DNA of 32,004 nucleotides from Candidatus Margulisiibacteriota bacterium (GTDB lineage: Bacteria; Margulisbacteria; WOR-1; O2-12-FULL-45-9): assembly GCA_030018645.1 (NCBI GenBank), contig JASEHX010000002.1, positions 6,272 through 38,275 of the forward strand, in the 5' to 3' direction. The stretch's first letter is position 1. Each line of letters begins with the position of its first letter. The notes below the pieces were generated by a model. It was not told the origin of the DNA. It was given only the letters and a program-made list of their open reading frames with translations, and searched no databases. Both the position numbers and the translations under genes were made by a program. This document shows positions 11,366 through 16,454 of the stretch, one piece after another.

Positions 11366-11395
11366 TTGACACCACCATGGATGGTGTGGTAAATT
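11366..11395 (+). promoter_or_regulatory. Candidate sigma70-type promoter of the nrdR-nrdD-nrdD operon, with an embedded palindrome
   Basis: TTGACA 11366-11371 and TGgTAAATT (extended -10) ending at 11395. The inverted repeat CACCAT-gg-ATGGTG (11373-11386) fills the spacer. Confidence 0.4.
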
Positions 11396-11413: not shown

Positions 11414-11917
11414 ATGAAATGCCCATTCTGCCAATACGAAGAAGATAAAGTGCTTGAATCCCGCGAAATAGAAGAAGGTGGGGCGGTTCGTCGGAGAAGG
11501 GAATGCCTTTCCTGCCGCGGCCGGTTTACCTCATACGAGCGGGTAGAAGAAAAGCCGCTGATGGTTATTAAACGCGATGGCCGCCGCGAAGCCTTTAACC
11601 GCGAAAAAATTTTAGGCGGGATCCACCGCGCCTGCGAAAAAAGGCCGGTGCCCACGGCCATGATCGAGCAAATGGTAGATGAAATTGAAAAAGAACTGCA
11701 CCGCAAAGAAGGACGCGAAGTGACCGCTGCTACCATTGGCCAAATGGTAATGGATAAACTGCAGGACACCGATAAAATTGCTTATATCCGTTTTGCTTCG
11801 GTGTACCGCAAGTTTGAAGATGTTTCCGACTTCATTAAAGAAGTAGCAGAAATCAGTCCCGCACTTTCTTATACAAATGAACCAGCTTTAAAAAGTGCGG
11901 GGAGGAGGGTAGAATAA
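11414..11917 (+). CDS. nrdR: Transcriptional repressor NrdR (zinc ribbon + ATP-cone)
   Basis: MKCPFCQ...CLSCRGRFTSYE zinc ribbon followed by an ATP-cone (VIKRDGRREAFNREKIL). Confidence 0.9.
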   Translation: MKCPFCQYEEDKVLESREIEEGGAVRRRRECLSCRGRFTSYERVEEKPLMVIKRDGRREAFNREKILGGIHRACEKRPVPTAMIEQMVDEIEKELHRKEGREVTAATIGQMVMDKLQDTDKIAYIRFASVYRKFEDVSDFIKEVAEISPALSYTNEPALKSAGRRVE

Positions 11918-14013
11918 TGGTTAAGGAATTATTGGTGGATGAAATGAAAAGTATAAACGATGCGACCGACATGGCCCTGTTTGTGCGGACATCTTCCGAA
12001 GATATTGTCGGCTGGAACCGCGAAAAAATTGTCGCCGCCCTGATCCGTGAAACCAGCGTTGACCCCGAAATTGCCGAAGTCATCGGCCAAGAAGTGGAAG
12101 AACAGATCATGCGCCTCAACCTGCGCACGGTTACCGCTCCCCTAGTGCGCGAACTGGTGGACGTAAAACTGCTGGAGCACGGCTTGGAAGAAGCCCGCCG
12201 CCGCCACACCCGCCTCGGCTTCCCGCTTTATGATGTTAAAGAAATTATCTTCAGCCAAAACAAGGAAAACGCCAATGTGCCGCACGGTCCCGAAGCTACC
12301 AATTTAACGCTGTCAGAAGGGATCAAAAAAGAATTCGCCCTCCTGCACGTTTTTACCCAGGATATTGCCGATGCCCACATGGTGGGCGACATCCATTTGC
12401 ACGATTTGGGTTTTATCGATCGGCCTTACTGCAGCGGACAGTCAGTAGAGTATGTCAAAAAGTTTGGGCTTGATCTTCCCAATGCTTTATCCAATGCCCG
12501 GCCGGCTAAACACCCTGAAGTTCTGTTGGCGCAAATGGTCAAGTTCTCGGCGGCACTGCAAGGCGTCTTTGCCGGAGCGATTGGCTGGGACGCGGTTAAT
12601 ATTTTCTTTGCTCCGTTTCTAGTTGGTTTATCGGATAAAGAAATTTATCAACTTGCCCAGATGATGATTTATGAATACAGCCAGCAAGCGGTGGCGCGCG
12701 GCGGCCAGGCCATTTTCTCGGATATTAATTTATACTGGGAAGTGCCCAAACATTTTGAAAATGTGCCGGCCATCGGCCCGGGCGGGGAGTATACCGGAAA
12801 AACTTATGCTGACTACATTAAAGAATCTCAAAAATTTGTCTGGGCGCTGTTTGACGTCTACCGCGAAGGGGACGGGGCGGGAAGACCCTTCTTTTTTCCC
12901 AAACCCTTGGTGCATATGACCGAAAAATTCTTCAAAACTCCGGGACATGAAGAATTCTTACTGCATATCTCTGAAGTGGCAACCGAAATGGGCAACACTT
13001 ATTATGTCTTTGACCGCGGCGATACCGCCAAAATTTCCGAGTGCTGCCGCCTGTCATTTAAACTGGAACAATCCGACCTTGACGATGCCAAGGAGCCCTG
13101 GCGGATGCGCTATTCCGCCCTCCAAAATGTTACTATCAACCTGCCGCGCATGGCTTACAAGGCCAAAGGATCGGACGATAAATTGTTTGAACTAATCGGC
13201 GCCAACTTGGAAATGGCCGCCCAAGCCCACATTCAGAAAAAAGCTTTTATTACCGAAATCTTAGCCAAAGGTCAGAGAGGGCCGCTTTCCATGCTGGCTA
13301 TGCAGCGCGACGGGCAATCGTATCTTAGGATGTTTAGGGTAAGTTATTTGATGGGCATTTTGGGCCTCAACGAACTGGTGCAGGCCCACAAGGGAGTGGA
13401 ACTGCATGCCAATGACGCGGCGCTAAAATTTGGCCTCAAAGTTATCTCGTTCATGAAGTTAAAATGCGAAGAATTATCGCGGCGCTATAACATGCACTTT
13501 GTCCTCGAACAAACCCCGGCCGAATCCACCGCCTATCGTTTTGCCAAGTTAGATATGGAACATTACCCCGAGCAAACCAGCCGCGTGGTAAAGGGACATA
13601 AAGAACAGAAGGAGCTGTATTACACCAATTCAACTTATTTTAATGTTTCCCATCCCATGAACCCGGCCGACCGGGTTAAAATGGAAGGCATTTTCCACCC
13701 CCTAATTGATGCTGGAGCGCTGACCCATGTTTGGCTGGGCGAATCAAAACCCAGCCCGGCTTCCATCGCCAATTTTGTGGTAAAAACTTTCCAGCATACC
13801 CAAAACGCGCAGATTGCTTTTTCGCCCGAGTTTACTTCCTGCAATGCCTGCGGTAAAATTGCCCGCGGCCTGCACGAAAAATGCTCCTATTGCCAATCGG
13901 AAAACATTGAAGGCATTACGCGCATTACCGGCTATTTTTCCAAGATTGCCGGCTGGAACAAAGGCAAAATCGGCGAACTAAAAGACCGTTATCGGGTGAG
14001 GGGAACAATATAG
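11917..14013 (+). CDS. nrdD: Anaerobic (class III) ribonucleoside-triphosphate reductase, paralog 1
   Basis: N-terminal ATP-cone, loop KISECCRLSF (C376-C377), C-terminal Zn site CNAC...CSYC and glycyl-radical motif RITGYFS. TAATG overlap with nrdR. Confidence 0.9.
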   Translation: MVKELLVDEMKSINDATDMALFVRTSSEDIVGWNREKIVAALIRETSVDPEIAEVIGQEVEEQIMRLNLRTVTAPLVRELVDVKLLEHGLEEARRRHTRLGFPLYDVKEIIFSQNKENANVPHGPEATNLTLSEGIKKEFALLHVFTQDIADAHMVGDIHLHDLGFIDRPYCSGQSVEYVKKFGLDLPNALSNARPAKHPEVLLAQMVKFSAALQGVFAGAIGWDAVNIFFAPFLVGLSDKEIYQLAQMMIYEYSQQAVARGGQAIFSDINLYWEVPKHFENVPAIGPGGEYTGKTYADYIKESQKFVWALFDVYREGDGAGRPFFFPKPLVHMTEKFFKTPGHEEFLLHISEVATEMGNTYYVFDRGDTAKISECCRLSFKLEQSDLDDAKEPWRMRYSALQNVTINLPRMAYKAKGSDDKLFELIGANLEMAAQAHIQKKAFITEILAKGQRGPLSMLAMQRDGQSYLRMFRVSYLMGILGLNELVQAHKGVELHANDAALKFGLKVISFMKLKCEELSRRYNMHFVLEQTPAESTAYRFAKLDMEHYPEQTSRVVKGHKEQKELYYTNSTYFNVSHPMNPADRVKMEGIFHPLIDAGALTHVWLGESKPSPASIANFVVKTFQHTQNAQIAFSPEFTSCNACGKIARGLHEKCSYCQSENIEGITRITGYFSKIAGWNKGKIGELKDRYRVRGTI

Positions 14014-16115
14014 TGAAGACGGTAACCAGTAACCAGTTGCCGGTAACCAGTATCCCGCCGGCGGAAGATACGACGGACCTTATGGTTTTCGTCCGCACGT
14101 CAACGGATGATATTGTAGCGTGGGATAAAGATAAAATTGTCGCGGCGCTAGTGAAGGAAACCGGGCTTAGCCCCGAGATTGGCTCAATCATTGCCATAGA
14201 AGTCGAAAAACAGCTCCGCGCTATGTCGGTTAAAAACATTACTTCTCCTCTCATCCGCGAACTGGTAGACGTTAAATTGCTGGAATACGGCCTGGAAGAT
14301 GCCCGCCGCCGCCACACCCGCCTGGGGGTCCCAGTCTATGATGTCAGAAAAATCCTTTTCCACAAGAATAAGGAAAACGCCAACACGCCGCACTCGCCGG
14401 AAGCCACCAACTTTACCTTGGCTGAAAATATCAAAAAAGAATTTGCTTTGCTCAATGTCTTTTCCCTGCCGGTGGCCGATGCCCATATGCGCGGCGATAT
14501 CCATTTGCATGATTTGGGTTTTGTTGACCGCCCCTATTGCAGCGGGCAATCAGTTGAATACCTTAAAAAATACGGCTTAGATCTGCCGGGCGCCAAGGGC
14601 TGCGCCAAACCGGCGGAAGATGCCGATGAACTCATTTCCCATATTGTAAAATTTTCGGTAGCTTTGCACGGTTTCTTCGCGGGAGCGATTGGCTGGGATG
14701 CGGTTAATATGTTTATGGCCCCTTATCTGGAAGGGTACGGTTCTGGCCACGTCAAAAAACTGGCTCACAAATTAATTTCCGAGTTTGCCACCGCGGCGGC
14801 GGCGCACGGCGGCCAGGGATTATTTTCTGATTTAAACCTATACTGGGAAATTCCTAAGCATTTTGAAAATGTCCCGGCCATTGGGCGGGGAGGGGTTTAT
14901 ACCGGTAAAGCTTATGCCGATTACATTAATGAATCCCAGCTTTTTGCCAAAGCCATGTTTGAGGTCTACAAAGAAGGGGATGGCGTGGGCAGGCCGTTCT
15001 TTTTCCCAAAACCTTTGGTGCACATGACGGAAAGGTTCTTCAATACCGCCGGCCACGAAGAATTCTTAAATCTTATCTCGGCCGTGGCGGCGGAAATGGG
15101 CAACACCTATTTTGTCTTTGACCGAGGAGAAACCGCCAAGATCTCCGAATGCTGCCGTTTGTCTTTTAAGCTCGATTATTCGGATTTGCAGGATGCCAAA
15201 GAGCCCTGGCGCATGCGCTACTCGGCCATCCAAAATGTTACGCTCAATTTACCGCGCGCTGCCTACCTGGCCCAAAGAAGCGACGAAAAATTATTTAAGA
15301 CCTTAGAGGAAATGCTAAACATTGCCGCCCGCGCGCACCGCGAGAAGAGAAAGTTTATTGAAGACCTGTTAAACGAAGGTCCCGATGGCCCGCTTTCGCT
15401 CTTAGCCACCGAGCGGGAGGGGGATTGCTATTTGCGCCTGCATCGCGTAACCCACCTGATTGGCGTGTTGGGCCTTAACGAGCTGGTGGAGTTTCATATG
15501 GGAAAACAGCTGCACGAAGCGCAGGATGCCCTGCGCTTTGGCCTGAAGGTCATTTCTTTTCTGAAATTAAAATGCGAAGAGCTGTCAGAAAAATACGACC
15601 TGCATTTTGTCCTGGAACAAACCCCGGCCGAATCCACTGCTTACCGTTTTGCCAAACTAGATATGGAGCATTTTCCCCAGCCAGCCCAGCAAGTGATCAA
15701 AGGCGATTTGGTTTCCGGCGAAATTTATTACACCAATTCGACTTACTTTAATGTGGGCTATGCCGTAAACCCGATTGATCGCGTCCAATTAGAAGGCCTG
15801 TTCCACCCGCTGATCGATGCCGGGGCGCTGACCCATGTTTGGCTGGGCGAATCAAAACCCGATCCCGCTTCCATTGCCAATTTTGTGATCAAAACTTTTA
15901 AAAATACCCAAAACAGCCAAATTGCTTTTTCGCCCGAGTTTACCGCCTGCCAAAACTGCGGGAAAACCGCCCGCGGACTGCACGATCAATGTCCATATTG
16001 TTCATCAGAAAAGATCGAAGGGATCACCCGTATTACCGGCTACTTTTCCCGGATCCCGGGCTGGAATAAAGGTAAAATCGGCGAATTAAAAAGCCGCTTT
16101 CGAAGTGAATTATAA
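14013..16115 (+). CDS. nrdD: Anaerobic (class III) ribonucleoside-triphosphate reductase, paralog 2
   Basis: Collinear with paralog 1 over the full length, roughly two-thirds identical by eye. Same ATP-cone, ECCRLSF (C380-C381), CQNC...CPYC and RITGYFS. GTG start overlaps the paralog-1 stop (TAGTG). Confidence 0.9.
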   Translation: MKTVTSNQLPVTSIPPAEDTTDLMVFVRTSTDDIVAWDKDKIVAALVKETGLSPEIGSIIAIEVEKQLRAMSVKNITSPLIRELVDVKLLEYGLEDARRRHTRLGVPVYDVRKILFHKNKENANTPHSPEATNFTLAENIKKEFALLNVFSLPVADAHMRGDIHLHDLGFVDRPYCSGQSVEYLKKYGLDLPGAKGCAKPAEDADELISHIVKFSVALHGFFAGAIGWDAVNMFMAPYLEGYGSGHVKKLAHKLISEFATAAAAHGGQGLFSDLNLYWEIPKHFENVPAIGRGGVYTGKAYADYINESQLFAKAMFEVYKEGDGVGRPFFFPKPLVHMTERFFNTAGHEEFLNLISAVAAEMGNTYFVFDRGETAKISECCRLSFKLDYSDLQDAKEPWRMRYSAIQNVTLNLPRAAYLAQRSDEKLFKTLEEMLNIAARAHREKRKFIEDLLNEGPDGPLSLLATEREGDCYLRLHRVTHLIGVLGLNELVEFHMGKQLHEAQDALRFGLKVISFLKLKCEELSEKYDLHFVLEQTPAESTAYRFAKLDMEHFPQPAQQVIKGDLVSGEIYYTNSTYFNVGYAVNPIDRVQLEGLFHPLIDAGALTHVWLGESKPDPASIANFVIKTFKNTQNSQIAFSPEFTACQNCGKTARGLHDQCPYCSSEKIEGITRITGYFSRIPGWNKGKIGELKSRFRSEL

Positions 16116-16130
16116 GAGGAGGATCATTTT

Positions 16131-16454
16131 ATGGCACTAGACAATCTGGCGGTAAAAGTTTTTGGGAAACCAGGGTGTGAGTTTTGTAAAACCACGGTTA
16201 AAAAATTTGAAACTTTTATGCAGCGTTGGGAAGTGGACACAGAAAAAGTCCAGCTCCAGTTTTTTGACATGGAAACGGTTGATGGGTTGGCGGAAGGGGC
16301 ATTTTACAGCGTTACCAAGATTCCTTCAACCGTGATTGAAAAGGAAGGCAGTATCGCCGCCCGCTGGGACGGGAAAGTGCCGCTGTCCAGCGAATTTAAG
16401 GATTATTTTGGGGGAGTTGCGGATTCTGGGGAAATCACGGATAGTATTAATTAG
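16131..16454 (+). CDS. Thioredoxin-fold small redoxin (NrdH/glutaredoxin-like), 107 aa
   Basis: VKVFGKPGCEFCKTT CxxC motif at the first beta-alpha junction, putative cis-Pro in TKIPST. Strong SD GAGGAGG upstream; immediately follows nrdD paralog 2. Confidence 0.65.
   Translation: MALDNLAVKVFGKPGCEFCKTTVKKFETFMQRWEVDTEKVQLQFFDMETVDGLAEGAFYSVTKIPSTVIEKEGSIAARWDGKVPLSSEFKDYFGGVADSGEITDSIN

Follow-up and report, generated by a model that had tools for sequence, protein, structure and literature searches.

Why should a bacterium keep two copies of nrdD, the gene for the catalytic subunit of class III ribonucleotide reductase (RNR), head to tail in one operon, and do both copies do the same work? 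The question is raised by a stretch of 32,004 nucleotides from contig JASEHX010000002.1 (hereafter, the window) of an uncultured groundwater bacterium of the Candidatus Margulisiibacteriota, Saganbacteria/WOR-1, whose metagenome-assembled genome (MAG) comprises 1.31 Mb in 153 contigs and is 86% complete. The two genes, here named nrdD-A and nrdD-B (products A and B), lie in a compact four-gene operon, nrdR-nrdD-A-nrdD-B-trx. An original prediction, made from the letters of the window, had described them as translationally coupled paralogs, both apparently functional. We consider it likely that they encode two competent reductases of the NrdD2 type, A being the ancestral form and B a form with a remodelled specificity site and altered effector reading, and that they act mainly as A2 and B2 homodimers.

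Family, catalytic motifs and ancestry of the two copies

Both open reading frames were found exactly where two full-length nrdD genes with a TAGTG overlap of one nucleotide had been predicted. The proteins are collinear and, in line with the two-thirds identity first estimated by eye, shared 467 of 690 residues (68%) with 0 gaps in a BLASTP comparison, the identity at the DNA level being ~69%. Both were recognized as NrdD over their full length by PF13597 (467.2 bits for A and 447.5 for B; cut-off 26.2), and TIGR02487 gave 416.7 and 417.9 bits, respectively (cut-off 326.35). The NKENAN flap, the HLHD, PYCSG, SECCR and LEQTPAES motifs, the four zinc cysteines and RITGY were present in A and B and invariant across an alignment of 37 sequences made up of A, B and outgroup proteins, so that the finger loop, the four-Cys zinc site and the glycyl-radical motif claimed for each copy were all recovered. 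In A, these motifs occupy residues 115–120 (NKENAN), 160–163 (HLHD) and 374–378 (SECCR), with the equivalents in B at +4, and they align with the flap of Prevotella copri NrdD and with YLHD and SCCR of Thermotoga maritima NrdD (TmNrdD), respectively, whose roles have been described (PMC4493059, PMC11226230): HxHD binds the triphosphate, and the finger loop carries the thiyl-radical cysteine. RITGY begins at residue 669 in A and 673 in B, after the four-Cys zinc ribbon (C642, C645, C656 and C659 in A; C646, C649, C660 and C663 in B). When an AlphaFold2 model of B (mean pLDDT 80.6, pTM 0.80) was compared with known structures by Foldseek, the top 36 matches were all NrdD structures (E 1e-28 to 4e-19), and the ten-stranded α/β barrel fold of NrdD was present in the predicted structure.

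The ATP-cone ascribed to each copy by the original prediction stood in part. A cone-like N-terminal domain is indeed predicted, with a helical bundle of modest confidence at residues 39–100 in the model of B, but the PF03477 matches fell below the gathering score (23.4 bits for A and 22.9 for B versus 25.8), and the canonical KR(D/N)G was absent, its position being taken by VRTS(S/T) in A and B and similarly in the outgroups. The domain is thus described here as cone-like and not as a certified ATP-cone.

According to Wei et al. 2014, as summarised in PMC4493059, the thioredoxin-dependent subtype NrdD2 has a third active-site cysteine and an active-site glutamate. The candidate cysteines in A are C172, aligned to Tm Cys125, and C376-C377, the CC of SECCR, and B has the same residues. 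Likewise, E531 of A (within LEQTPAES) and its counterpart in B aligned to the Glu of NIEQVPAE in TmNrdD, presumably Glu495, which we take to be the glutamate that defines NrdD2. Both proteins therefore appear to carry the thiol-dependent NrdD2 signature, and a turnover driven by thioredoxin rather than formate would find genomic support in the downstream thioredoxin-fold gene with its CEFC motif and in TrxB, the thioredoxin reductase encoded in the source genome (374 bits). Ferredoxin:thioredoxin reductase, searched for as an electron source in the same genome, was not found.

The ratio of nonsynonymous to synonymous substitution rates (dN/dS) was estimated by the NG86 method, with dS saturated (>2 or undefined) for most pairs and usable (0.6–1.1) in L039/L044 and L046/L043 alone. 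Pairwise values between orthologs ranged from 0.03 to 0.075 for A and from 0.03 to 0.106 for B, and the two least saturated pairs gave 0.050 and 0.075 for A and 0.055 and 0.106 for B. Purifying selection acts strongly on each of the copies, and neither is decaying, as had been judged from the letters; no catalytic residue was lost on alignment. A tract of 36 nt that is identical in A and B (Table 1) is absent from the closest relative, L030, in which 7 positions differ, and it was for this reason read as a recent short gene conversion. The longest identical A/B runs (29–53 nt) were above the codon-shuffled expectation in ~12 of 29 genomes, at positions that differ by genome. Concerted evolution of the whole genes was ruled out, given that A and B orthologs separate and that the sharing of codons within genomes shows a small, uniform excess (0.519 vs 0.456).

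Adjacent A and B genes occurred in ~30 of 40 related genomes, with representatives in the family, in the order and in several families of its class, single-contig genomes included. The pair was present in at least 29 named loci of Candidatus Saganbacteria, WOR-1 or Margulisiibacteriota, among them L039, a curated complete single-contig genome of 1.67 Mb. A is 78–88% identical to its orthologs and 66–72% identical to the single-copy NrdDs of other phyla, relatives of this kind having been found in Desantisbacteria, Edwardsbacteria, Thermodesulfobacteriota and Thermoplasmatota, while B is 62–64% identical to the single-copy outgroup proteins. A maximum-likelihood tree was rooted on distant (~30% identical) NrdDs from the same group of genomes. 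As anticipated for a lineage-specific duplication, all A and B sequences fell into one clade without the single-copy outgroups (SH-like approximate likelihood ratio test, SH-aLRT, 98), in which B was monophyletic (support 100, stem 0.40) and A formed an unresolved basal grade. This indicates a single tandem duplication, ancient and basal to the Saganbacteria/WOR-1 lineage, followed by faster change in B. Horizontal acquisition of B from another phylum was ruled out, since in the tree B falls into the Saganbacteria clade together with A, apart from the outgroups.

The second copy is dispensable. Three genera of the source's family, G005 (L064), G013 (L027) and G015 (L069), carry fmt-nrdR-A-trx with B precisely missing, and no B was found elsewhere in these assemblies, which are 86–94% complete. 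On the A tree, three losses of B are most parsimonious, no fewer than two being required by branches with good support. No genome with B and without A was encountered among the related genomes examined, and A was never lost among the relatives having this operon. Since there were at least two losses of B and none of A, A is self-sufficient and can serve as the only RNR, B being an accessory copy.

The stretch in which the two copies differ

The clearest divergence had been placed at about residues 185–260, and this region indeed stood out in the comparison of orthologs. In residues 186–270 (numbered here and below as in A, and corresponding to 190–274 of B), the mean p-distance between orthologs was 0.084 for A and 0.280 for B (B/A 3.3), compared with 0.195 and 0.233 in the rest of the protein (B/A 1.2) and 0.250 and 0.219 in the N-terminal domain, residues 17–110 (B/A 0.88). 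The consensus of A over this stretch is nearly that of the outgroups, LPNxLSxA(K/R)PA(K/R)HxEVLLA...ALQG...Q(L/I)AQM(M/L)I(Y/F)E(Y/F)SQQAVARGGQAIFSDIN, and many of the positions do not vary in 74 sequences from bacteria and archaea. In particular, PA(K/R)H, Q215, Q245, Q248, Q256, Q257, R261 and Q264 were kept in 73–74 of the 74 A and outgroup sequences; B is without these specificity-site residues, whose roles are assigned through a low-identity alignment to TmNrdD, except for Q264 and, in most genomes, R261.

The replacements in B are shared and directional. All 33 B sequences have D for N189, E/Q for K/R198, D/E for H199, E for V202 and S for A205, and Q215 is His in 33 of 33; they also all have K/R for Q245, R/K for Q248 and K/Q for M249. 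Further along, Q256 became T/S and others and Q257 became V/I/A, and A265G and I266L in loop 2 are nearly fixed. R261 is kept in 26 of the 33, and Q264 and F267, which would contact the substrate, are kept in B. In the source genome the changes read Q215H, Q245K, Q248R/H, M249K, QQ to T/A, and R261H. The net charge over residues 189–206 is +1.0 in A, +0.8 in the outgroups and −3.45 in B, and over residues 241–252 it is −0.4, +0.5 and +3.0, respectively. In L055, the B that branches earliest, QQ is still present at 256–257, and this shows that the changes accumulated after the duplication. With dN/dS values for the stretch of 0.015–0.034 in A and 0.04–0.11 in B, the region in B is still constrained and is therefore rebuilt, not degraded.

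In order to place these differences on a structure, A and B were aligned to TmNrdD (PDB 4COI), with which they share 16–18% identity; in this alignment, the only one used for the mapping, the R..Q..Y/F pattern of loop 2 matches. Mapping via the P. copri, Streptococcus thermophilus and T4 enzymes was dropped, the HMMER alignments being unreliable at residues 240–290. K150-H151 of TmNrdD (in EPAKH) correspond to K198-H199 at the start of αA, where a PAK motif is also found in the P. copri and S. thermophilus enzymes, and Arg221, Gln224 and Tyr227 of loop 2 correspond to R261, Q264 and F267. The effector dATP of TmNrdD is bound at the dimer interface along αA and αB, with its base enclosed by glutamines from the two chains and a Mg ion close to Gln210 of αB, while in loop 2 (residues 217–228) Arg221 and Gln224 reach the substrate base and Tyr227 stacks on it (PMC4493059). 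The AlphaFold2 model of B, with helices at 204–219 and 244–264 and a loop at 265–271, agrees with this mapping. By alignment, A and B would thus differ at the specificity-site hairpin, at both interface helices and on the effector-proximal side of loop 2, which makes the proposed difference in effector behaviour a well-founded inference.

Operon layout and related loci

The features of the locus are compiled in Table 1. The stop codon of nrdR overlaps the start of nrdD-A by 1 nt, and nrdR is found 5' of nrdD-A in nearly all related loci, where the order fmt-nrdR-A-B-trx is kept. At the A-B junction, all 29 paired loci have either an overlap of 1–26 nt or a gap of ≤12 nt, and in the source genome GAGGGG is located 12–17 nt 5' of the TAGTG junction. 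In nearly all loci, the thioredoxin-fold gene comes directly after B, or after A where B was lost. A palindrome, CACCATGGATGGTG (window positions 11373–11386), lies in the promoter-like site 5' of nrdR, between its −35 and −10 hexamers, and may be an operator. The source genome encodes one NrdG2 activase outside the operon, on contig C138 (TIGR02495, 187 bits versus a cut-off of 131). No large subunit of a class I or class II RNR was detected in the 86% complete assembly and, to judge from this assembly, the organism has no ribonucleotide reductases other than A and B.

Table 1. Features of the nrdR-nrdD-A-nrdD-B-trx locus, with positions in the window
Feature	Position	Strand	Description
Promoter-like site	11366..11395	+	Best of the operon, 5' of nrdR; TTGACA, 18 nt, TAAATT with TG; 10/12 matches; consensus match alone
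nrdR	11414..11917	+	167 residues; zinc-ribbon and ATP-cone repressor of RNR genes; TIGR00244 202 bits (cut-off 125), PF22811, PF03477
nrdD-A (P0001)	11917..14013	+	698 residues, ATG start; conservative, ancestral-type class III RNR catalytic subunit
A residues 186–270	12472..12726	+	Putative specificity-site hairpin, helix αA (PAKH...), helix αB and loop 2 (SQQAVARGGQAIF); near-invariant in A and outgroups
36-nt tract in nrdD-A	13717..13752	+	Identical to 15825..15860 (+) in nrdD-B; p=0.005 versus codon-shuffled genes
TAGTG junction	14011..14015	+	A stop TAG 14011–14013 and B start GTG 14013–14015, one base in common
nrdD-B (P0002)	14013..16115	+	700 residues, GTG start; derived paralog, monophyletic with long stem; catalytic motifs intact, specificity site apparently rebuilt
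B residues 190–274	14580..14834	+	Rebuilt equivalent of A 186–270; PAEDADE for PAKHPEV, GQGLF for GQAIF
Thioredoxin-fold gene (trx)	16131..16454	+	107 residues, CEFC motif; likely a dedicated reductant; PF13192 27.1 bits; strong Shine-Dalgarno sequence 8 nt 5'

Several observations were made on other nrdD genes and their neighbours. A weakly similar thioredoxin-fold gene (28–38% identical) often lies directly 3' of the single-copy outgroup nrdD, Thermoplasmatota archaea included (L066, L075–L080, L086, L091, L092, L095, L101, L105 and L107); being present in these outgroups, the nrdD-redoxin pairing predates the duplication. G013 and G015 have, elsewhere in the genome, a distant third NrdD (28–30% identical). 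A very divergent NrdD (28–32% identical to A) is encoded at an unlinked locus in the relatives L108–L112 (G031, G002, G036, G029 and G010), and G024 and G036 have the very divergent type alone. Frameshifts split one or both nrdD copies in L040, L058 and L104, the latter two being MFD-labelled MAG records, and are due to sequencing error or mark a pseudogene.

Most relatives also encode a protein of ~98 residues whose last 35 residues are an NrdD glycyl-radical motif (ITRITGYFSKVGGWNKGKLGEL). This C-terminus is 65–70% identical to A residues 661–694; the protein is without the zinc ribbon, and its N-terminal 60 residues have no family match. It is encoded, for example, at L113:1478-1774 (−) in G001, of the same genus, and at L114:1498-1794 (−) in the complete genome G016, and a gene for an Rrf2-family regulator adjoins it in both. 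No such protein was found in the 86% complete source assembly. From its sequence, it looks like a spare radical domain of the GrcA/YfiD type for class III RNR.

Proposed roles of A and B and comparison with known reductases

In the arrangement that we favour, A would be the canonical, allosterically regulated enzyme, in which neither loop 2 nor the specificity site at the dimer interface has changed from the original, and B would combine a fully retained radical and substrate-binding machinery with a specificity site rebuilt after the duplication: the presumed phosphate-binding PAKH has become acidic, five invariant glutamines of αA/αB are replaced, three basic residues are new on αB, and loop 2 is altered on its effector side. 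From this rebuilt site we infer that B reads deoxyribonucleoside triphosphate (dNTP) effectors differently or not at all, which would give the cell a second reductase whose substrate preference is different or fixed. B would be made in step with A through translational coupling, and the single NrdG encoded elsewhere would presumably activate the glycyl radical of both. The thiyl radical would then drive the reduction of ribonucleoside triphosphates, and the active-site disulfide would be re-reduced by the operon's thioredoxin-like protein via TrxB and NADPH. A2 and B2 are favoured as the main dimers because neither half of the ancestral site has changed in A and both have in B, and the two probably divide between them the work of balancing the four DNA precursors.

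Some of the evidence weighs against this arrangement. The mapping to the specificity site depends on the TmNrdD alignment at 16–18% identity and may be one or two residues off, with the P. copri and S. thermophilus alignments unreliable in precisely this stretch, and a further RNR or activase is possible in a genome that is 86% complete. Furthermore, the tight coupling seen in all 29 loci, which suggests equimolar synthesis, is also expected for the subunits of a heteromer, and the absence of B-only genomes would fit a B that needs A as its partner. These last points belong to the reading in which an A:B heterodimer is the main form, with two non-equivalent specificity sites and a hard-wired form of the asymmetry of class III RNRs, documented for P. 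copri NrdD, where at any one time one monomer is active and the other inactive and their loop 2 conformations differ (PMC11226230; PMC12662201); that the divergence falls exactly on the dimer-interface helices is in its favour as well. However, nrdR-A-trx without B is all that three relatives have, so that A alone suffices there, and the two ancestral site halves of A are invariant, although in a heterodimer each would face a changed and still variable half of B. In B, the αA half and the αB/loop 2 half have both changed, which is what one would expect of a B2 site that pairs with itself; B also retains all catalytic residues, hence is no dedicated inactive partner. The loss of B in those relatives and the unchanged site of A weigh against an obligate heterodimer, and we regard the A:B form as the main one as rather unlikely, though a facultative A:B heterodimer may form.

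A more specific idea is suggested by the position of the charges. By alignment, the acidic patch at the start of αA in B and its basic residues on αB sit where TmNrdD binds the effector triphosphate and Mg, and they might pair and so mimic a bound effector. Such a salt-bridge network would replace the specificity site, lock loop 2 and render B effector-independent; alternatively, a permanently asymmetric A:B heterodimer would hard-wire half-of-sites reactivity. We put this forward tentatively, as a possibility that is less likely to hold than to fail. That the copies are merely redundant, kept for gene dosage or as ecoparalogs with the same allostery, is very improbable. Paralogy of RNR genes is common and redundancy its stated null hypothesis (PMC3019208), and B can be lost, but the divergence is asymmetric and local, the same substitutions recur in all 33 B sequences at a dN/dS of ~0.1, and short conversion tracts never erase the differences in residues 186–270; genes that appear to be co-transcribed and translationally coupled would, besides, not be separately regulated. 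An assembly artefact or a decaying pseudogene can be practically dismissed: the source is a fragmented MAG, but the same pair stands in independent assemblies, including the curated complete one, the two copies are too different at the DNA level, and both frames are open with low dN/dS.

To our knowledge, in all RNRs studied to date a single protein keeps the four dNTPs in balance, its specificity site sensing the dNTP pool. In the present case, in a whole lineage and in its only detectable RNR, a second subunit has long been kept with its chemistry untouched and, it would appear, its specificity site rewritten. Were B effector-blind, differently tuned or paired with A, the locus would amount to a natural experiment on class III specificity regulation and half-of-sites reactivity. 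If the salt-bridge or the asymmetric-heterodimer idea were true, the allosteric control of specificity, regarded as universal in RNRs, would be divided over two gene products, and in the salt-bridge case B would be the first class III RNR with its nucleotide specificity site so replaced. A search of the literature on tandem or duplicated nrdD, on NrdD with a remodelled specificity site and on Saganbacteria RNRs found no paper, and the mechanistic details of class III specificity regulation have been stated to be still unknown (PMC12662201).

Among known systems, a precedent for retained duplicated RNR subunits is found in yeast, with Rnr1/Rnr3 and with Rnr2-Rnr4, which pair together as a heterodimer. 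These are class I enzymes, however, and Rnr4 lost its cofactor ligands, whereas B keeps every catalytic residue; we know of no retained or pairing paralog pair described for class III RNR. The NrdDs of P. copri (PDB 8P23 and others) and S. thermophilus (9D3X) share with A and B the N-terminal cone or cone-like domain and the NxN flap, and their specificity site is at the dimer interface, as is predicted for A and B, but they are of the formate-dependent NrdD1 type, their ATP-cones are true ones that bind two nucleotides, and each is a homodimer encoded by one gene. The thiol-dependent NrdDs of T. maritima (4COI, 4COJ, 4U3E) and Neisseria bacilliformis have the same fold as the model of B (Foldseek E ~1e-22) and share SCCR/SECCR with its extra cysteine, the Glu in (I/L)EQxPAE, HxHD, the zinc ribbon and the glycyl-radical loop, as well as, in T. 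maritima, the R..Q..(Y/F) pattern of loop 2 (PMC4493059). They are only 16–18% identical to A and B and are single-copy homodimers, in contrast to tandem paralogs of which one has an apparently rebuilt site, and TmNrdD is without the N-terminal cone-like domain of A and B. The nearest relatives are the single-copy nrdD(-trx) loci (e.g., L067, L085, L087 and L077), in which residues 186–270 are almost identical to those of A; in the loci of this kind from Desantisbacteria, Edwardsbacteria, Thermodesulfobacteriota and Thermoplasmatota there is one gene and no B-type copy.

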